A stretch of 63,992 nt of DNA, filler included, from an uncultured Methanosarcinales archaeon (GCA_964385185.1; 4 parts of 4 records of this genome joined end to end with filler, not necessarily neighbours in it), one strand, 5' to 3'. Shown: positions 6,348 through 48,623, numbered from the whole stretch's first letter. Notes: generated by a model from the letters alone, not told the origin. Program-made: numbers and translations.

Positions 6348-6421
6348 GGGAAGGTAGCTCAGACTGGGAGAGCGCAACGCTGAAGACGTTGAAGTCGAGG
6401 GTTCAAATCCCTCTCTTCCCA
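6348..6421 (+). tRNA. tRNA-Phe(GAA), no intron, CCA not encoded
   Basis: Cloverleaf: acceptor GGGAAGG/TCTTCCC, anticodon arm CAACG-CTGAAGA-CGTTG, T arm GAGGG-TTCAAAT-CCCTC; TATA box at about 6316. Confidence 0.97.
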
Positions 6422-15329: not shown

Positions 15330-15887
15330 TTACCCATTAGCTAATCGACTAACGGTAAATGCTCCAACTAATAATACAAGAATCATACCTAATACATTAG
15401 GATGAACTAAAGTATCCCAGAAATCATTCTCTTGCTGACTTACTTCTCCTGTTCCTTCTTCATACCCTCGGCTAAAATCAGTCTCACCAACACCGCCAAA
15501 ATCACTGACAACGCTAACGAGAGAACCAACAAAGATCAATAAACCTAATCCCACAATCCAAACATTAAGATAATCATGTCGTGGACTCTTGAAAACTCCC
15601 ATAATATCTCCTTCATTAAATCCAAGAATCATAAACATCATCATGATAAAGAGTATCCCAAAGGCTAAAAAGACAAACCACGGTGCCATCAAACTAATAA
15701 CTTCACGCACAACAGGAAATAGGATAGACAATATTGCCAAAGATAAAGCTGATATGGCACCTAATCCTTTATTCTCCCCAAATATCTTAGTTTTCAAAAA
15801 GATTGCATAAAAGATACAAAAAACTAGAAGAAAAGGAAATATAACTCGAAAGCTTGAAAGTAAGCTTGTATCTATAGGCGTTGCCAT
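15330..15887 (-). CDS. Membrane protein, paralog 3 of PFLLxF..KTKxxG family
   Basis: IFPFLLVFCIFYAIFLKTKIFG. Confidence 0.75.
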   Translation of the reverse strand: MATPIDTSLLSSFRVIFPFLLVFCIFYAIFLKTKIFGENKGLGAISALSLAILSILFPVVREVISLMAPWFVFLAFGILFIMMMFMILGFNEGDIMGVFKSPRHDYLNVWIVGLGLLIFVGSLVSVVSDFGGVGETDFSRGYEEGTGEVSQQENDFWDTLVHPNVLGMILVLLVGAFTVSRLANG

Positions 15888-17329: not shown

Positions 17330-17878
17330 ATGCTAAACAAGAAAGAATTTGATAGTATTAGAAAAGACCTAAAATCGTTCGATGAAAAACGAGAAGAAGT
17401 CATCCAATTATCTAGAACTATTATCCAGCTATCAAAGCAAATAATCTACGCATTACATAGAGATGAAGATCCAAAAAAGAAAATAGAAGAAATGCAAGCA
17501 AAAATCGATGAACTTCCTAAAACAAAATTTGATACTAATATAGACAAGGTGGCTTACCAAGAATATGTGGAAGCGTTAACTTATGCACAATTTGTAAAAG
17601 ATAAAACGATTCCTACGAGAAAAGATTTAAACGTCGACACAGAATCATACTTACTAGGTCTTGCAGATTTATCAGGAGAATTAGTAAGAAAAGCTGCAAA
17701 TAGTGTTATTAACAAACAACCGAAGCAAGCAGAAGAAATTCGAGAATTAGTTGAACAAATTTACGGACAGTTCTTAACATTCGATTTAAGAAATGGAGAA
17801 CTGAGAAAGAAATCAGATCAAATTAAATACAATTTACAAAGACTTGACAGTATAGTTTACGATATTAAAAAGAAGTAA
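17330..17878 (+). CDS. Translin/TRAX-family (C3PO-like) RNA endonuclease
   Basis: YQEYVEA and YLLGLADLSGELVR acidic motifs, LRKKSD. Confidence 0.85.
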   Translation: MLNKKEFDSIRKDLKSFDEKREEVIQLSRTIIQLSKQIIYALHRDEDPKKKIEEMQAKIDELPKTKFDTNIDKVAYQEYVEALTYAQFVKDKTIPTRKDLNVDTESYLLGLADLSGELVRKAANSVINKQPKQAEEIRELVEQIYGQFLTFDLRNGELRKKSDQIKYNLQRLDSIVYDIKKK

Positions 17879-17892
17879 AATACAGCCATCAA

Positions 17893-17978
17893 CAGCTGGA
17901 CGATGCCCTTGCATTTCCAGCTAATGGTCTGGAAATGCAGAAGGGCAGGTTCACTGTGTGAACCACCAAGTCCAGCTG
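17893..17978 (+). repeat. Structured intergenic element, copy A (three-way junction)
   Basis: CAGCTGGAC/GTCCAGCTG closing stem; long hairpin with GA bulge; GGTTCAC-TGT-GTGAACC. Confidence 0.85.
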
Positions 17979-18012
17979 CAAAAAGAACAAGTCCAAAAAA
18001 GCCAACAAAAAA

Positions 18013-18582
18013 ATGAAAGATTTAACAAACTACTTTTTCGAAGTAGGAAACCTTCAAAGAGTTGCCAACTCAGGTTGGTGGCTAATTGGAGAAAAGAATC
18101 CAAACTCAGTTGCTGAACACGTTCATAGAGCTTCTACAATTGCATTCTGTCTTGCACACTTAGAGGATAAAGATCCATTTAAAGCATCATCAATTACCCT
18201 CTTCCATGACAATCATGAATCACGAGTAACTGATTTACATAAAGTAGCTCAAAAATATGTAGACTTAAAAAAAGTTGACGTAAAAGTCCTGCAAGATCAA
18301 ACATACAGTCTTCCAAATCAAATCAAAGAAAGCATTCAAACATTATTTAACGAATACCATACACAATCAACTGCTGAAGGTATTATTGCAAGAGATGCAG
18401 ATTTATTAGAGTACGGATTAAAAGCGAGAGAATTAATGGTGCAAGGGAATGTCGCAGCAAAAGATTGGCTAGACAACATTAACAAGTTAGTTAAAACAGA
18501 TTCTGGCATCAAACTAGCAAAATCATTATACAAAGCCGACCCAAATGATTGGTGGAAAGATCTGAAGAACATAAAAAGATAA
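18013..18582 (+). CDS. HD-domain phosphohydrolase (YfbR/HDDC2-like)
   Basis: SVAEHVHR, LFHDNHE, ARDADLLE. Confidence 0.85.
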   Translation: MKDLTNYFFEVGNLQRVANSGWWLIGEKNPNSVAEHVHRASTIAFCLAHLEDKDPFKASSITLFHDNHESRVTDLHKVAQKYVDLKKVDVKVLQDQTYSLPNQIKESIQTLFNEYHTQSTAEGIIARDADLLEYGLKARELMVQGNVAAKDWLDNINKLVKTDSGIKLAKSLYKADPNDWWKDLKNIKR

Positions 18583-18583
18583 A

Positions 18584-19219
18584 ATGCTAGACATCCTCAA
18601 TAAAATTCATTGGCTTGGACATTCTTCTTTCATTATCGAACCTGATAAAACAATAATCCTTGACCCGTTCAAAATCACCACAGAAAAGAAAGCAGACATT
18701 CTATTCATTTCTCACGAACACTATGATCACTGTTCACCAGATGATATTGAAAAAGTAATACAACCCTCAACAATCATTGTCACTGTCCCTGGAAATCAAT
18801 CCAAAATTGCACCTTTCGCAGAGCAAGTTGCAGATGTAAAAATTGTAAAACCCGGAGATTCCTTAGAAATAGATAACATCCACATCCTAGTAACTCCTGC
18901 TTACAATACTAACAAAGATTTCCACCCTAAAGCAAACGATTGGGTCGGATTTATATTAACAATAGACGATACAAAAATCTATTACGCTTCAGATACAGAC
19001 GTAATAGACGAAATGCAAACGATAGAATGTGATATAGCCATCCTTCCTATTTCAGGAAAATTTGTTATGACGCCAGAAGAAGCTGCAGAAGCAACTAAAA
19101 TTCTAAATCCAAAAGTAGCCATCCCCATGCATTATGGAGATATCATTGGAACAGACGAAGATGCTAAGAAATTCGAATCATTATGTGAATGCGATGTTAA
19201 AATATTAGATAAAAATTAA
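18584..19219 (+). CDS. Metallo-beta-lactamase fold hydrolase
   Basis: WLGHSSF, SHEHYDH, IPMHYG. Confidence 0.9.
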   Translation: MLDILNKIHWLGHSSFIIEPDKTIILDPFKITTEKKADILFISHEHYDHCSPDDIEKVIQPSTIIVTVPGNQSKIAPFAEQVADVKIVKPGDSLEIDNIHILVTPAYNTNKDFHPKANDWVGFILTIDDTKIYYASDTDVIDEMQTIECDIAILPISGKFVMTPEEAAEATKILNPKVAIPMHYGDIIGTDEDAKKFESLCECDVKILDKN

Positions 19220-20310
19220 CCAAACTTCTTCCCAATATCTTTACGAACCTTCTCAAAACTGCCCTTCTCAATCCCTTCCCTTATAGAATCCATCAACCTC
19301 TGCATAAAATACAAATTATGATAGCTACAAAGTCGATATCCAGTAGGTTCATTCATCCTCATCTGATAAGAAAGAAAAGCACGTGAAAAGTTCTTACACA
19401 CATAACAATCACAATCCTTATCCAACGCCTTAGAATCTGTCCGAAAAGCAGCATTTTTAATCCTAATCTTACCTTTAGAAGTAAACAACGTCCCATGTCT
19501 AGCATTCTGTGTATGATACGCCGAATCAAAACAATCAACTCCTGCACCAACAGCCTCAACAATATCAGCTGGATTGCCCACACCCATTAAATATCTTATT
19601 TTACTATCATCAAGTTCTTTAATACTCGTCTGCATAGCCTTGACCATTTTAGCATGTCCTTCACCTAATGCCAATCCACCAATAGCAACTCCATCAAAAT
19701 CTAAAGAATCTATAAACTGTGCACTCTTCTTCCGAACATCTAAATGCAACCCTCCTTGACAAATTCCAAATATCTTCTGTTTCTTAATTTTATACTGTAA
19801 ACATTCTTCTGCCCATCGATGCGTTCTATCAAGAGACTTCTCTACATCTTTCTTTCCAGCTTTTACAGAAGGCATATCATCCAAACACATGGCAACATCC
19901 GATCCAAGAGCTTGTTGAACCTGCATAGCATCCTTCGGAGTGTACAAAAACTTATTGCCATGCCAAGGATTGGTAAACACAATACCATCTTCCTGACTTT
20001 TTACATAGAAACTTTCCCTATCAGCCTGAAACCCTCCAGAGTCAGTAAAAATGACACCATCAAAACCACTAAACCTATGTAATCCTCCAACCTTCTCAAC
20101 AATATCAACTCCAGGGTTCAAAGATAACACTAACGAATTTGAAATCCAAGCTCCAGTTCCAATCTCTGATAAATCTTGGGGCGTAATACACTTAACACTC
20201 CCCTTAGTAGCACAAGGCATTAAGAAAGGTGTCTTCACCTTCCGACCATTGACTGACAACTCCCCACTTCTACCATCATTCTTAGAATCTGTTTCCTTAA
20301 TCGTGAACAT
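19216..20310 (-). CDS. tgt: tRNA-guanine transglycosylase, bacterial (queuosine)-type architecture
   Basis: TDSGGFQ, GICQGG, IGGLALGE, RYLMGVG, Zn site CDCYVC..H; 364 aa, no PUA domain. Confidence 0.85.
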   Translation of the reverse strand: MFTIKETDSKNDGRSGELSVNGRKVKTPFLMPCATKGSVKCITPQDLSEIGTGAWISNSLVLSLNPGVDIVEKVGGLHRFSGFDGVIFTDSGGFQADRESFYVKSQEDGIVFTNPWHGNKFLYTPKDAMQVQQALGSDVAMCLDDMPSVKAGKKDVEKSLDRTHRWAEECLQYKIKKQKIFGICQGGLHLDVRKKSAQFIDSLDFDGVAIGGLALGEGHAKMVKAMQTSIKELDDSKIRYLMGVGNPADIVEAVGAGVDCFDSAYHTQNARHGTLFTSKGKIRIKNAAFRTDSKALDKDCDCYVCKNFSRAFLSYQMRMNEPTGYRLCSYHNLYFMQRLMDSIREGIEKGSFEKVRKDIGKKFG

Positions 20311-20387
20311 ACAAATATAAACTGATTCGTAATTTATAAAGTTACCTCACAATAACCTTTATATACATCCAGCCACTTCTTTAACCT

Positions 20388-22151
20388 ATGAAATATAGAA
20401 CACATACCTGCAACCAATTAACAAAAGCTGATGTAGGTAATAAAGTAATCTTATCAGGTTGGAATTCTACAAGAAGAGATCATGGTGGATTAATATTCAT
20501 AGATTTAAGAGATAGATACGGTTTAACACAAGTATCATTTGATCCAACAAAAAACAAAGATGCACATGCAACAGCAGAAAAACTCTCCAGAGAAGATGTA
20601 ATCACAATCCAAGGAACCGTACAACCAAGACCTGACGGTATGACAAACAAGAACCTACAAACAGGAGAAATTGAAGTCATAGCAGAAAAATTAGAAATTT
20701 TCAGTAAAGCAACAACACCTCCTATCGAAGTTGATGACAGAGTCATTGCAAATGAAGAGACAAGACTCAAATACAGATATCTAGATCTAAGAAGACCAAC
20801 TATGATTAAGAACCTAGCATTTAGAGACAAATGTGCAATTGCAGCAAGATCATTCTTCCACCAAAACGATTTCCTAGAGATTGAAACACCTCTTTTAGTA
20901 AGGGCAACACCAGAAGGTGCAAGAGATTACGTCGTACCAAGCAGAACCGTTCCAGGAACTTTTTTCGCACTACCACAATCACCACAATTATACAAACAAA
21001 TTCTAATGGTTGCAGGAATGGATAAATATTTTCAATTTGCAAGATGCCTAAGAGACGAAGATTTACGTTCAGATAGACAACCGGAACATACACAAATGGA
21101 TCTAGAAATGTCATTTGTAACAGCAGAAGATATCATGGAATTCGTAGAAGGCTTATTCAAACATATCACAAAAGAAGCAGCAGGAATTGAAATTAAAGAA
21201 CCATTTGTAAAACTAACCTATGACGAATCCATGAAATTATACGGAACAGACAAACCTGACCTCAGATTCAAATTAGAATTAACAGACGTCACAGATATTG
21301 TAAAAGATTCAGATTTTCAAGTATTCCAAAACGTAGCAAAAGACGGCGGATTAATTAAGTGCATAAATCCAGAACAAGATCTTCCAAGAAAAGAAGTAGA
21401 TGCTTTAATAGATTTCTGCACACAAGCAGGAGCTAAAGGAATGGCTTGGATGAGAGTAACTAAAGACGGCCTAGAGTCAAACATTGCTAAATTCTTTGAC
21501 AAAGAAACACAAACAAAACTTATTGAAGCAACCCAAGCAAAAGAAGGATCCATGTTAATGTTTATAGCAGACAAACCTGCAACAACCAATGCAGTCTTAG
21601 CAGCATTAAGAAATCACTTAGGAGAAAAACTATCCTTAATCGCACCTAATCAATTTTCATACTGTTGGGTAACAGATTTTCCACTATTCGAATTCAATGA
21701 AGAAGAAAATAAATGGGATGCCTGTCATCACATTTTCTCAAGTCCAAAAAAAGAACATATTAAACACCTAGAAACAGATCCAGGAAAAGTATATGGAGAT
21801 CTATTTGACATTGTCCTAAACGGTACAGAAATGGGATCAGGATCTATTCGAATTTCACAGCCAGCTTTACAAAAGCAAATCATGAAAGTAATAGGTTTCG
21901 ACGAAAAAGAAGCAGAACATAAATTCGGATTCCTCCTCAACGCCTACAAGTACGGAGGACCACCTCATGGAGGAATGGGACTCGGTTTTGACAGATTAGT
22001 AGCAATGCTCCTAGGATATACAGACATTAGAGAAGTAATCACCTTCCCTAAAAACAAGAATGCTGAAAACCCTATGGATGGCTGCCCTTCAAACATCACA
22101 GAACAACAAGCTAAAGAATTATACTTAAAGTCAACAGTAGCCAAGAAATAA
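20388..22151 (+). CDS. aspS: Aspartyl-tRNA synthetase, bacterial type (probably non-discriminating)
   Basis: YRTHTC, RRDHGG, PQSPQLYKQ, GAD-like insert, PPHGGMGLGFDR; 587 aa. Confidence 0.93.
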   Translation: MKYRTHTCNQLTKADVGNKVILSGWNSTRRDHGGLIFIDLRDRYGLTQVSFDPTKNKDAHATAEKLSREDVITIQGTVQPRPDGMTNKNLQTGEIEVIAEKLEIFSKATTPPIEVDDRVIANEETRLKYRYLDLRRPTMIKNLAFRDKCAIAARSFFHQNDFLEIETPLLVRATPEGARDYVVPSRTVPGTFFALPQSPQLYKQILMVAGMDKYFQFARCLRDEDLRSDRQPEHTQMDLEMSFVTAEDIMEFVEGLFKHITKEAAGIEIKEPFVKLTYDESMKLYGTDKPDLRFKLELTDVTDIVKDSDFQVFQNVAKDGGLIKCINPEQDLPRKEVDALIDFCTQAGAKGMAWMRVTKDGLESNIAKFFDKETQTKLIEATQAKEGSMLMFIADKPATTNAVLAALRNHLGEKLSLIAPNQFSYCWVTDFPLFEFNEEENKWDACHHIFSSPKKEHIKHLETDPGKVYGDLFDIVLNGTEMGSGSIRISQPALQKQIMKVIGFDEKEAEHKFGFLLNAYKYGGPPHGGMGLGFDRLVAMLLGYTDIREVITFPKNKNAENPMDGCPSNITEQQAKELYLKSTVAKK

Positions 22152-22198
22152 TACTCTATCTACGCAAGCATTAAATACCACACAGCAACCTAAATCAT

Positions 22199-22873
22199 AT
22201 GCCAAAAATTTCAATAATTATACCAGCATTCAATGAAGAGAAATATATAGAGAAAACGATCCAAAAAATAAAAAAATCCACAATAAAAGATTATGAAATC
22301 ATAGTAGCACTAGACTCCTGTACCGATAATACAGAAAAAATAGTAAAAAAGCTCAATGTAAAATACATAAAAGTTAATGCAAGAAAAGCCAGTGCAGCAA
22401 GAAACGCAGGAGTAAAACTAGCAAGAGGAGAAATTTTAGTATTCTTAGACGCAGACACATTAATACCAAAAGAACTACTAGAAGAACTTCCTGAAACAAT
22501 GAAAACCTGCACTATAGCTACTTGCAAAGCAGAACCAGACGTTAAGAAATTCTTAACATCATTATTAATCAAAGCAAAAGATCTCGTTATTTCAATGGGA
22601 TTAATAAAAACATCAAATGGAATTATTATAACAACTAATAAAATATTCAATAAAGTCGGTGGATTCCCACTCCTACCCTATCATGAAGATGGTGTATTCA
22701 TTCGAGCCGCAGCAAAACTAGGAAAATTCACATTCTTAAGCAACCACATTGTAATCCAATCCATGAGAAGATACATCATCCTAGGGTACATCACCCCACT
22801 TTTATTCTGGGGCATAGAATGGGTTAAAGGATTGTTCAATAAACGATCTAAAATCTACCCTGCAGCAAGATAA
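22199..22873 (+). CDS. Glycosyltransferase family 2
   Basis: ISIIIPAFNEE, FLDAD, ED motif. Confidence 0.9.
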   Translation: MPKISIIIPAFNEEKYIEKTIQKIKKSTIKDYEIIVALDSCTDNTEKIVKKLNVKYIKVNARKASAARNAGVKLARGEILVFLDADTLIPKELLEELPETMKTCTIATCKAEPDVKKFLTSLLIKAKDLVISMGLIKTSNGIIITTNKIFNKVGGFPLLPYHEDGVFIRAAAKLGKFTFLSNHIVIQSMRRYIILGYITPLLFWGIEWVKGLFNKRSKIYPAAR

Positions 22874-22890
22874 TTTCTTCACAAGACAGT

Positions 22891-22973
22891 TACTGGACTG
22901 TGCACTTACATTTCCAGCTAATGGCTGGAAATGTAGAGGGGCAGGTGCTCTGTGAGCACCAAAAAGTCCAGTG
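22891..22973 (+). repeat. Structured intergenic element, copy B (three-way junction)
   Basis: Homologous to copy A with compensatory changes; GGTGCTC-TGT-GAGCACC. Confidence 0.85.
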
Positions 22974-23046
22974 CGGCCGTTATTAAGTCCAACGTTCCAA
23001 AATTCTAACCAAAACCTATTTATACATACATCAACCACTAAAGATT

Positions 23047-23331
23047 ATGAATGTAGACGAAGACTTACTAAGAAACGTTGCTAAACTAGCACGTCTAAAG
23101 TTAACAAAAGAGGAAACAATAACATTCTTACCACAATTAAATGAAGTCCTAGACGTTTTCTCAAAACTAGAAGAAGTCAACACAGATAACACTAAATCAA
23201 GCTTCCAACCAGTCCCTCTAAAAAATGCATTAAGAGAAGACAAACCAACAGTATGTAACACTCAAGAAGAAGTACTCAAACTAACTGATCACAAAAAAGA
23301 CGGCTACTTTAAAGGACCAAAGGCAGTATGA
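23047..23331 (+). CDS. gatC: Asp/Glu-tRNA amidotransferase subunit C
   Basis: VAKLARL, LRED, GYFKGP; precedes gatA. Confidence 0.92.
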   Translation: MNVDEDLLRNVAKLARLKLTKEETITFLPQLNEVLDVFSKLEEVNTDNTKSSFQPVPLKNALREDKPTVCNTQEEVLKLTDHKKDGYFKGPKAV

Positions 23332-26077: not shown

Positions 26078-26177
26078 NNNNNNNNNNNNNNNNNNNNNNN
26101 NNNNNNNNNNNNNNNNNNNNNTTAATTAATTAANNNNNNNNNNNNNNNNNNNNNNNNNNNNNNNNNNNNNNNNNNNN
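26078..26177. other. Artificial contig-joining linker
   Basis: N-run + TTAATTAATTAA (stops in all frames) + N-run, 100 nt. Confidence 0.95.
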
Positions 26178-38271: not shown

Positions 38272-38366
38272 AGTTGGCGAGAGAGGGATATTGTTTTTAA
38301 GTGTTTCTATTAAGTTTTTATGTATGAGATATGGAAGTAATAGAATTTGAAAAAGAGGAGATTGGA

Positions 38367-38411
38367 GGCACTCTCAGAGTGCCCACTCTCGCAGTCTTAC
38401 GACTGCGAGTG
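38367..38411 (-). repeat. Double-hairpin intergenic element, copy C
   Basis: + strand GGCACTC-TCA-GAGTGCC then CACTCTCGCAGTC-TTAC-GACTGCGAGTG. Confidence 0.85.
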
Positions 38412-38460
38412 GATGGCTTCCGCATTTCAGACTTGAGATAAAACTGAGATAAAATTTGAA

Positions 38461-44428: not shown

Positions 44429-44494
44429 AGTAGATAATTGTTATTGTTGGTATTTAAAGGTTAGGGATTGTTTTAAAGGGGCTAAAACGGAAAT

Positions 44495-44539
44495 GGCTTG
44501 CACAGCAAGCCGACTCTCGCAGTCTTACGACTGCGAGTT
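44495..44539 (-). repeat. Double-hairpin intergenic element, copy D
   Basis: + strand GGCTTGC-ACA-GCAAGCC then GACTCTCGCAGTC-TTAC-GACTGCGAGTT. Confidence 0.88.
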
Positions 44540-44604
44540 GCGTTGTTATTGTTTGGTCTATTTTCATGGTAATGTATATAAACTTTGGACTGTTGTTATA
44601 GTTT

Positions 44605-48413: not shown

Positions 48414-48484
48414 TTAGAGTTGGATTGGTTGTAAGTTTAAAAGAGTTTTGTAATAGAGAATTGGAGAAATACGAAAAAGGTAAT

Positions 48485-48528
48485 GGCTTGCACAGTAAGC
48501 CGACTCTCGCAGTCTTACGACTGCGAGT
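48485..48528 (-). repeat. Double-hairpin intergenic element, copy E
   Basis: One mismatch to copy D over the shared stretch. Confidence 0.88.
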
Positions 48529-48623
48529 GATTCGCTTGGACTACTGTTCTGAGAAATATGGTAAAATAATTTAGAAGGAGTATTTAAAAAAAGGAAAATA
48601 AAAGAAAAAAATAATTAGTTGGT

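Follow-up and report, generated by a model that had tools for sequence, protein, structure and literature searches.

In bacteria, REP and BIME repeats and the attC sites of integrons have been studied thoroughly and linked to known enzymes; attC sites are marked by conserved R and L boxes and by extrahelical bases. Bacteria also use skewed oligomers as polarity signals. According to PMC3733652, a tetranucleotide tag sits at the 5' foot of the REP hairpin, and the account of sedentary integrons in PMC5371416 places the bottom strands of attC on the template of the leading strand in 25/30. The orientation of IS200/IS605 is described in PMC5027513 as tied to the lagging-strand template. Archaeal structured interspersed repeats appear in the RepRanger report (PMC12306157) only as lists from computer searches.

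Here, we describe Fam1, a GC-rich intergenic unit of about 85 nt that occurs in 15 copies in a 1.3-Mb archaeal genome, and two related families, Fam2 and Fam3. On balance, we judge Fam1 to be a lineage-specific intergenic repeat whose function lies in the DNA, one defined strand of which folds, and the best reading of the three families together is a REP/BIME- or attC-like repeat that folds as a single strand. Two Fam1 copies, A and B, lie on the + strand of the window (the whole 63,992-nt stretch of DNA that was analysed), where the original prediction had placed them. Their features, and those of three Fam2 elements, are collected in Table 1.

Table 1. Coordinates of Fam1 and Fam2 features in the window
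Feature	Position	Strand	Basis
Fam1 copy A, whole three-way junction	17893..17978	+	Fold; model R1 99.4 bits, E 4.8e-23
Copy A P1 5' arm, partner 17970-17978	17893..17901	+	Fold; family P1 covariation
Copy A P2 long hairpin, 3' A-G bulge, CTAATGGT loop	17904..17947	+	Fold; covariation
Copy A P3, 7-bp hairpin, C-TGT-G triloop	17948..17964	+	Fold; module common to all three families
Copy A 5-nt linker ACCAA, just before P1 3' arm	17965-17969	+	
Copy A P1 3' arm	17970..17978	+	Fold
AAGTCCAA 13 nt past copy A, repeating P1 3' arm	17992..17999	+	
Fam1 copy B, whole three-way junction	22891..22973	+	Fold; model R1 88.3 bits, E 3.4e-20
Copy B P1	22891-22898/22966-22973	+	Fold
Copy B P2	22901-22943	+	Fold
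Copy B P3	22944-22960	+	Fold
Copy B linker	22961-22965	+	Fold
AAGTCCAA 13 nt past copy B	22987..22994	+	
Fam2 element, window's second contig, GC skew positive there	38359..38412	-	74.5 bits
Fam2 element	44487..44540	-	74.1 bits
Fam2 element	48477..48530	-	69.0 bits

Folding confirms the predicted architecture of a closing stem (P1), a long bulged hairpin (P2) and a 7-bp TGT hairpin (P3) in both copies, with z-scores from about -7 to -9. As RNA, copy A folds at -51.7 kcal/mol (z -7.63) and copy B at -45.9 kcal/mol (z -6.94), values that none of 200 shuffles matched; as DNA, the z-scores are -8.71 and -7.89. The bulge foreseen in P2 is present, but its unpaired bases are A-G on the 3' side, not GA, and the invariant run is A-G-A. 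The compensatory differences listed between the two copies were all found in the pairwise alignment, and the proposed distance of 14-17 nt from a stop codon also holds, the upstream ORF stops ending at 17878 and 22873, i.e. 14 (A) and 17 nt (B) before P1. The downstream AAGTCCAA does lie at an equal distance from both window copies, but because only 2 of the 21 family members have it, it is no family feature, and its suggested role as an alternative pairing partner fails. The window holds three matches to a 17-base core pattern (<=3 mismatches) against 0.22 expected. Two tertiary features were considered and rejected: a pseudoknot formed by the P2 loop with the 5-nt linker, which by eye varies freely (ACCAA, TGCAA, AAAAA and others in the family), and a K-turn in P2, whose 5' strand, judged by eye, is without the required G-A.

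The search of the whole genome with a covariance model, which the original prediction had proposed, gave the 15 copies at E <= 4e-17, the next match standing at E 0.005; BLASTN alone recovers 12 of them. Six further copies lie on metagenome contigs of a relative about 80% identical, whereas a search of 60 relatives, among them a genome from the same genus, found none. A pattern scan of genome contigs returned six matches (four in Pseudomonas, one each in Thermococcus and Elusimicrobiota), none of which the model accepts, and viral contigs scanned with the Fam1 and Fam2 patterns gave no matches. The copies are dispersed over 13 contigs beside unrelated housekeeping genes (AspRS, GatCA, ValRS, histone, aIF2-alpha), and the genes downstream of the elements include those for an HD hydrolase, GatC, LOG, histone, aIF2-alpha, AlaX, EndA and a dTDP-sugar enzyme, among others. 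By eye, 'CAA', a putative target motif, is seen at the flanks of several copies, where the background is A-rich in any case.

That the structure is selected is strongly supported. In the alignment of 21 sequences, which was fitted to the model, 96.8% of cells pair and 23 of the 34 pairs show double changes. The covariation score is 0.481 against 0.177 for shuffled alignments, of which 0 of 500 reach it, and is at most 0.111 when the partners are slid. RNAalifold run on a plain MAFFT alignment finds compensatory changes in 22 of the 34 pairs. Double changes affect 8 of 9 pairs in P1, the most variable part of Fam1, and 12 of 18 in P2, while the loops and the bulge are conserved.

Together, the three families (15, 25 and 25 copies) make up 65 elements in 1.3 Mb, all outside long ORFs save for overlaps with doubtful short ORFs. 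Common to them is the TGT hairpin, G-N4-C / TGT / G-N4-C. Fam2 joins it to a GNRA-capped hairpin, with the GNRA tetraloop on the same strand in most copies. Fam3, a bulged ACA/TGT-triloop hairpin, shares with Fam1 the P3 hairpin, the logic of the closing stem and an unpaired run of 4-5 nt 3' of P3; Fam1 differs in the sequence of its closing stem and in P2, an additional hairpin of 44 nt that turns the junction into a three-way one. Head-to-head Fam3-Fam1 pairs occur at two loci in this genome and at two in the relative. Nine of the 65 elements, at five loci, lie within 400 nt of one of the 30 tRNA genes; closeness to tRNA genes was rejected as a feature, since no enrichment could be demonstrated.

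The orientation of the elements follows a simple rule. In 33 of 35 unpaired elements, the TGT strand is the C-rich strand (+-10 kb), whatever the gene orientation, and this C-rich strand is also the A-rich strand of the chromosome; for unpaired Fam1 copies the count is 10/11. The polarity (binomial p 3.7e-8) persists when the influence of the coding strand is taken out; among the 1224 ORFs, used as a control, 556 have their sense strand on the C-rich strand. The relative's six contigs all have the same polarity sign, and within the window, Fam1 is on + where the skew is negative and Fam2 on - where it is positive. Elements that point the other way nearly always belong to a head-to-head pair: adjacent pairs are head-to-head in 15 of 15 cases, with 0-29 nt between model ends and two pairs overlapping, and all four paired Fam1 copies are the member in non-canonical orientation. 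Since nearly all copies point one way along the chromosome's two unlike strands, action as folded single-stranded DNA, and not as a regulatory RNA, is the most likely. Wobble pairs, too, single out one strand as the one that folds: on the TGT strand, G·U/T wobbles outnumber A·C mismatches by 22 to 2 (11:1 in Fam1 and 11:1 in Fam3). Against a DNA-level reading stands that G·U pairs would be tolerated in an RNA, G·T being weaker in DNA.

The G-rich strand carries 55% of the 1224 ORFs and 92 of 153 long ORFs, a weak gene-orientation bias, and tRNA genes are without strand bias (16/30). Judged by ORF orientation, the leading strand would be the G-rich one. At the sole orc1/ORB region the skew keeps its sign, so the polarity can be linked to replication only tentatively. 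In G027, which has a different junction repeat, the skew is only +-0.03.

Fam1 copies have been gained, lost and swapped between close relatives. Comparison of L064 with C23 reveals a clean 100-nt indel taking in P1; this is the sole clean empty site, and it carries no target duplication. At C21 and C30, Fam3 and Fam2 in this genome stand against Fam3 and Fam1 in the relative, and at C7 and C41, the element is kept in both with its stems swapped and compensated. That only one such empty site was found is a limit of the DNA-level reading, in which transposition is presumed. A MITE of the DDE type was rejected on the high variability of P1 and on the missing duplication at that site.

Among the other explanations, a cis-acting RNA element at the 3' end of mRNAs or in intercistronic spacers, where an RNA-binding protein would bind it and it would serve for stabilisation, processing or termination, would account for the tolerated G·U pairs and the same-strand GNRA tetraloops of Fam2, and bacterial REPs have been described in such RNA roles. 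It would also suit the five Fam1 copies, both window copies included, that follow a co-oriented ORF and start 11-20 nt past its stop, in our own simple longest-ORF calls. We nevertheless consider it unlikely: by the same calls, 7 of the 15 copies are flanked by divergent ORFs and placed upstream of the TATA box of each, and 3 of 15 run antisense to the ORFs on either side. In tandem contexts, the unpaired elements, counted over all families, are 8 sense to 4 antisense; orientation instead tracks strand asymmetry (33/35), and every head-to-head pair makes one member antisense in any transcript.

Folded attC-like sites, recognised by a tyrosine recombinase and bordering exchangeable cassettes, would explain a single-strand fold with one preferred strand and modules swapped at fixed positions, and the orientation bias resembles that reported for sedentary integrons (PMC5371416). 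The genome has three full-length tyrosine recombinase genes and two fragments, and one of the full-length genes (C6:3-983) lies about 200 nt from a Fam3/Fam3 pair. This recombinase was rejected as the partner: relatives of it occur in 3 of 60 related genomes and Fam1 in none of the 60, so the two are uncorrelated. Fam1 copies are also single, spread over their 13 contigs by housekeeping genes and not in arrays of short cassettes, and exchange affects the element as such instead of a gene flanked by two sites, all of which makes this explanation improbable. The search for other partner enzymes gave the following results. The Y1_Tnp model (PF01797) has no match at E <= 0.01 in this genome, which is scored 100% complete, whereas 6 of 14 control genomes are positive, and no RAYT gene was found by the same search. 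The TnpB model gives only a 19.8-bit zinc-ribbon match, below the cut-off. Self-BLAST of the genome shows no multicopy gene as a possible transposase, and a 160-aa ORF between elements on C34, tried as a candidate, has no Pfam family. That these searches gave no enzyme counts against the reading as a mobile DNA element.

The original prediction left the choice between an undescribed ncRNA motif and a REP-like mobile element; a REP-like repeat fits the data and a free-standing ncRNA motif does not. Independent small-RNA genes, i.e. 15 paralogous three-way-junction RNAs of ~90 nt with a protein partner that reads the loops, might be proposed from conserved loops and bulge beside covarying stems, from the use of one defined strand and from a TTAWAAAG-like run seen by eye 19-24 nt upstream of some copies. 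In this genome, a TATA-like hexamer peaks 25-34 nt before start codons, and mRNAs are therefore mostly leaderless. The hexamer is upstream of 7 of 35 unpaired elements (Fam1 3/11), no more than in random intergenic windows (25.5%), and a T5 run is downstream of 6 of 35 (Fam1 1/11); thus, neither promoters upstream nor T-runs downstream are enriched. Because paired elements are only 0-29 nt apart, there is no room for promoters in the pairs. With Fam1 absent from the same-genus genome and 59 other relatives, and swapped or lost among close relatives, small-RNA genes are very improbable.

A riboswitch or self-cleaving ribozyme, to which a three-way junction with conserved unpaired bases might point, is scarcely credible, given functionally unrelated neighbouring genes, copies that lie upstream of the next genes' promoters with TATA boxes between element and start codon, and the Rfam comparison, in which, as predicted, nothing was recognised: at gathering scores, the sole match over the window is a tRNA (6348-6421), at E <= 10, none of the five weak matches over 17700-23200 overlaps either copy, and the hammerhead, twister, twister-sister, pistol, hatchet and riboswitch models have no match on the copies.

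For the favoured reading, a repeat acting as folded single-stranded DNA, we can outline how it might operate. A structure-specific trans-acting protein, presumably neither Y1/RAYT nor TnpB, would recognise the shared TGT hairpin together with the invariant bulge and loop, and would mobilise or exchange elements via single-stranded DNA made at replication. New units would insert either by themselves or next to an element already in place, at its 5' foot. Copies may persist where the folding strand is seldom single-stranded, probably the leading-strand template by analogy with the attC sites of sedentary integrons, and RNA effects, for example, of the five copies after a co-oriented gene, would be secondary, as with bacterial REPs. 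A bolder version, which we regard as possible but doubtful, is an undescribed archaeal single-stranded DNA system in which a non-Y1/RAYT protein reads the C-TGT-G hairpin on one strand and inserts or exchanges modular cargo, either the Fam1 junction or the double hairpin of Fam2, against resident hairpins at their 5' foot, marking ~50 strand-polar loci, or in which the elements are host polarity signals for replication, repair or segregation. If true, no REP-like system would have been worked out in archaea before it, and none with a branched unit anywhere.

The rules of these families are very clean (strand polarity of 94%, head-to-head pairing of 100% and modules swapped at orthologous sites), and the set is compact, with three modular architectures in an ultra-small genome that has little DNA to spare. 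Two questions thereby become testable, namely which protein of archaea deals with repeats of folded single-stranded DNA, and whether the direction of replication is reported or exploited by such repeats. Annotators are also cautioned that an 'RNA-like' motif may covary strongly and yet be an element of the DNA level.

Compared with known systems, Fam1-3 resemble the ends and gene-less derivatives of IS200/IS605 in having hairpins that are read from one strand as single-stranded DNA, in lacking terminal inverted repeats, in showing no target duplication at one empty site and in a strand-coupled orientation, which for IS200/IS605 is described as a coupling to replication (PMC5027513). They differ in that no TnpA or TnpB was found and in that Fam1 forms a single closed junction where those elements have two unlike ends; should the leading strand be the G-rich one, their folding strand is also opposite to the one the insertion sequences prefer. 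Like integron attC sites, Fam1 folds from one strand, its sequence is free, its structure is kept and its unpaired bases are invariant, and the strand bias of Fam1-3 is of the same kind as in sedentary attC arrays; unlike attC, Fam1 has neither cassette arrays nor an integron integrase context, and relatives differ by the elements themselves, not by the genes between. In comparison with REP, BIME and REPIN (RAYT, TnpA-REP), the host is an archaeon in which no Y1/RAYT gene was found, no conserved tetranucleotide tag was seen 5' of P1 (alignment A2) or of the stem (A8), the Fam1 unit is a branched three-way junction of ~85 nt instead of a 20-40-nt hairpin, and the bias to one chromosome strand is very strong (33/35). 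What Fam1-3 share with these bacterial repeats is that they are short, GC-rich, structured and intergenic, are present in tens of copies, conserve structure more than sequence, are found alone or in inverted pairs separated by short spacers (here, head-to-head in 15/15) and are lineage-specific with fast turnover.

The two elements, copies A and B, are both present on the + strand where the original prediction had placed them, and each folds independently into the proposed architecture of a closing stem (P1), a long bulged hairpin (P2), a second hairpin of 7 bp with TGT as its triloop (P3) and a linker of 5 nt. In both copies, P2 carries two unpaired bases on its 3′ side. The RNA fold energies are -51.7 kcal/mol for copy A and -45.9 kcal/mol for copy B (z -7.63 and -6.94), the corresponding DNA folds have z scores of -8.71 and -7.89, and for neither copy did any of 200 shuffles match the native energy, as RNA or as DNA. 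Because the copies are near-palindromic, their reverse strands fold about equally well. The compensatory differences between the two can be seen in a pairwise alignment, and the upstream ORFs do end shortly before P1, by 14 nt (A) and 17 nt (B). Comparison with Rfam gave no family for either copy: at gathering scores, tRNA is the sole match in the whole window, and at E <= 10 there are five weak matches in 17700-23200, none of which overlaps copy A or B.

Both copies belong to a repeat family, Fam1, of the window's own genome (1.3 Mb, 85 contigs, completeness score 100%). BLASTN with copy A as the query finds 12 copies in this genome, and a covariance model built from these 12 (R1) finds 15 at E <= 4e-17, the next match having an E-value of 0.005. 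RNAalifold, given a plain MAFFT alignment, predicts 34 pairs, with compensatory double changes in 22. When six copies from metagenome contigs are added to those of the own genome (21 copies), pairing is found in 96.8% of 690 cells and double changes at 23 of the 34 pairs. The covariation score of this enlarged alignment, which is favoured by its having been fitted to the model, is 0.481, compared with 0.177 ± 0.012 for shuffled alignments; none of 500 shuffles reaches it, and sliding the partners by 1-3 columns lowers it to at most 0.111. The stems therefore covary, and the structure is under selection, as had been proposed. In the copy on contig C18, the P1 sequence is wholly different, yet 9 of its 10 positions pair (read from the alignment). 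Hardly any position is invariant other than the bulge A-G-A in P2, the greater part of the CTAATGG loop and, in P3, the G-G/C-C base and C-TGT-G top.

Outside the own genome, R1 finds no Fam1 copy in 60 related genomes, nor in a same-genus genome (77% complete, one of the 60) searched alone at E <= 1. A degenerate Fam1 pattern, which recovers 13 of the 15 known copies, gives six matches in 185,579 species genomes, all of which R1 rejects, no match in viral contigs, and 25 loci in metagenome contigs. Eighteen of these loci are at least 99.7% identical to the own genome and one is a chance match; six carry new Fam1 copies (L052, L054, L063, L064, L066 and L071). As the flanks of five of the six are 77-91% identical to the own genome over the aligned parts, these five can be assigned to a close relative; L054 does not match the own genome.

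Weak R1 matches and a scan for triloop hairpins brought two sister families to light. Among perfect 6-bp stems, TGT and its complement ACA are by a wide margin the commonest triloops (39 and 45, against a median of 8), and about 55 of the TGT/ACA hairpins are GC-rich and intergenic, falling into three groups. Fam1 is the three-way junction (15 copies in the own genome). Fam2 (25 copies) is a nearly invariant 9-bp hairpin with a GNAA cap, followed after 4 nt by the TGT hairpin; four copies have a longer P2, one of them with the Fam1 loop CTAATGGT. Fam3 (25 copies) is a long hairpin in which a lower stem of 11 bp is followed by the TGT hairpin, with four bulged nucleotides 3′ of the latter; 97.1% of its alignment cells are paired, with double changes at 10 of 17 pairs, and it is Fam1 minus P2. 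In two Fam2 copies (L075 and L077), the P2 loop is enlarged and the 3′ tail is complementary to it at seven or eight positions (by eye), so that a pseudoknot is possible. In 150 other genomes of the order, Fam2 was not found and the Fam3 model matches one genome, where its four weak matches belong to another repeat, a three-way junction whose closing stem is similar, rather than to Fam3. A different repeat of about 100 nt occurs in a genome of another family of the same order (G027; L140, L142, L144 and L146). It has a long closing stem (CACCAC...GTGGTG core, bulge on the 3′ side) and an inner stem, and with its two triloop hairpins it makes a three-way junction, so that repeats branched in this way are not limited to one species.

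Features discussed in the text (window positions unless a contig or locus is named; G000 is the window's own genome)
Feature	Location	Strand	Remark
Fam1 copy A	17893-17978	+	
Fam1 copy B	22891-22973	+	
ORF of 248 aa	16657-17403	-	beside translin gene
Contig C15	1-26077		
N spacer	26078-26177		contig C16 follows
Fam2 copy	38359-38412	-	second contig
Fam2 copy	44487-44540	-	second contig
Fam2 copy	48477-48530	-	second contig
Fam2, enlarged loop	C1:103313-103368		L075, L077 (with next row)
Fam2, enlarged loop	C5:8889-8952		
Swap loci, relative	L066:700-1500; L063:1300-1863		orthologous to next row
Swap loci, own genome	G000 C21:16940-17700; C30:1750-2450		
orc1/cdc6 locus L169	G000:C41:403-3678		about locus 2700-2940; contigs C32, C41 and C9
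tRNA-Val locus L174	G000:C6:14181-17258		C6:15200-15272 and 15681-15758

Wobbles and mismatches indicate which strand folds. Counted in helices only, with loop-proximal pairs left out and read on the strand carrying the TGT loop, the ratio of G·U/T wobbles to A·C mismatches is 11:1 in Fam1, 11:1 in Fam3 and 0:0 in Fam2. Since this ratio would invert on the other strand, it is the pairing of the TGT strand that selection maintains; the TGT strand being C/A-rich, mutation pressure would be expected to yield A·C rather than G·T on it.

The own genome has a strong strand asymmetry: once a coding-strand effect of about 0.14 has been removed, the GC skew (0.1-0.3) keeps one sign from end to end of each contig. 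Thirty-three of the 35 unpaired elements carry the TGT strand on the C-rich, A-rich strand (±10 kb; binomial p 3.7e-8), whether the skew is taken raw or corrected in this way. For unpaired Fam1 copies alone, the figure is 10 of 11. One of the two exceptions is on C8, in a region of weak skew with what looks by eye like a degenerate partner hairpin upstream; the other is on C40. As controls, the sense strand coincides with the C-rich strand in 556 of 1224 ORFs, and 16 of the 30 tRNA genes are on the G-rich one. The sign is the same on all six contigs of the relative, which are short and were read by raw skew. Within the window, copies A and B lie on + where the skew is negative, and the three Fam2 copies on - where it is positive; the N spacer between the two contigs has ttaattaattaa at its middle. 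By our own ORF calls, the 15 Fam1 copies lie in seven divergent, five tandem-sense, three tandem-antisense and no convergent contexts. Element orientation tracks the chromosome strand, not genes.

The other 30 of the 65 elements make up 15 adjacent pairs; the model ends are 0-29 nt apart, and two pairs overlap. All 15 are head-to-head: seven Fam2+Fam3, four Fam3+Fam3, two Fam1+Fam3 and two Fam1+Fam2, the Fam1 copy being in each of its four pairs the member in non-canonical orientation. Elements that place their folding strand on the G-rich strand are thus nearly confined to positions against the 5′ foot of a canonical one.

The G-rich strand carries 55% of the 1224 ORFs and 92 of the 153 ORFs of at least 500 aa. 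In most prokaryotes, the gene-richer strand is the leading strand; if this slight excess marks the leading strand here, the folding strand lies on the leading-strand template. The link to replication has a weak point, in that the skew has the same sign on either side of the only orc1/cdc6 gene and the ORB-like spacer beside it. This AT-rich spacer contains two inverted ORB-like boxes. The sign is constant across 16 contig joins made from end overlap, and the largest 30 contigs show no clear switch; either the origin is located elsewhere or replication is unusual.

Across the genome, 124 of the 241 occurrences of the TATA-like hexamer TTTAWA within 70 nt upstream of 459 ORFs fall 25-34 nt before the start codon, where the hexamer peaks. 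This position implies that mRNAs are mostly leaderless, and hence that an element 30-75 nt before a start codon is upstream of the promoter. TTTAWA lies 10-50 nt upstream of 7 of the 35 unpaired elements, compared with 25.5% of random intergenic windows, and a T5 run follows 6 of the 35. The flanking genes are unrelated to one another: the window order is translin, copy A, HD hydrolase, MBL hydrolase, TGT (-), AspRS, GT2, copy B, GatC and GatA, and Fam1 neighbours elsewhere include a valyl/isoleucyl-tRNA-synthetase-like ORF, histone, Hjc, aIF2-alpha, EndA and others (read from translations). The 248-aa ORF in the table has no Pfam family at E <= 0.001. Judged by these sequence signals, the elements are probably neither a transcription unit nor a leader. 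The tolerance of G·U would fit RNA better than DNA, and this is a weak point of a DNA-level reading.

Comparison with the relative reveals turnover. At the C7 and C41 loci, the element is kept at the same place, and the distal P2 stem (at C7 also P3) has changed with full compensation; the changed stems look like those of other paralogues and so point to exchange between copies. At C23, the relative has a complete element and the own genome none, the alignment gap being 100 nt, P1 included, with no duplication. At C21 and C30, a Fam3 hairpin is present in both genomes, differing by compensated pairs, and its head-to-head partner is Fam2 in the own genome and Fam1 in the relative. Whole units including P1 are thus gained, lost and replaced. 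The repeat of the P1 arm downstream, AAGTCCAA, does lie 13 nt after P1 in both window copies, but it failed as a family feature, with 2 of 21 copies at 7 of 8 matches; the C25 copy has 6 of 8 at a different distance. It may mean that copies A and B share a slightly longer ancestral unit, and is outside the family mechanism.

The elements thus combine a structure selected on one strand, a strand polarity blind to transcription, a minority orientation tied to head-to-head pairs, and gain, loss and swapping of units. Known elements that share this combination function at the replication fork, as folded single-stranded DNA, from which we infer a DNA-level mode. A putative structure-specific protein would read the common TGT hairpin, while the invariant bulge and loop could give each family its specificity. 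Units might move or exchange via single-stranded DNA, with the foot of a resident element as a favoured landing site, and copies would persist where the folding strand is rarely single-stranded. It is a weak point of this reading that neither a Y1 transposase nor TnpB, nor any multicopy gene, was found in the own genome. The genome has three full tyrosine recombinases and two fragments, with no apparent connection to the repeats; Fam1 is missing from all 3 of the 60 relatives in which the recombinase we tested occurs. A 39-aa tyrosine recombinase fragment, about 400 nt past a tRNA-Val gene that itself comes after a Fam2/Fam1 pair on C6, looks like the scar of an integrated element.

Our search of the literature on DPANN intergenic hairpin repeats found no paper on such elements, and among the matches listed for palindromic repeats in Woesearchaeota there were only CRISPR or unrelated topics. 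A computational survey includes loosely defined REP-like palindromes in Euryarchaeota and Crenarchaeota (PMC12306157). New here are the family of three-way junctions, the strand polarity, the head-to-head rule for pairs and the swaps between Fam1 and Fam2.

Unlike DDE-type MITEs, the elements show neither conserved terminal repeats nor target duplication. IS200/IS605 ends are folded single-stranded DNA read by Y1 HUH enzymes (PMC5027513), which also read REPs (PMC3333891, PMC3116915); the enzyme and tag that define REPs were looked for here and not found. Integron attC sites are folded single strands read by a tyrosine recombinase, and in sedentary integrons the folding strand is on the leading-strand template, which limits excision (PMC5371416). 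The folding strand here would have the same placement if the G-rich strand is leading, without the array context of attC. By analogy, the elements most likely work like REP/BIME or attC and are members of neither, from which they differ in that the unit is branched and modular, the host is an archaeon, no enzyme is known and the rules of polarity are very strict.
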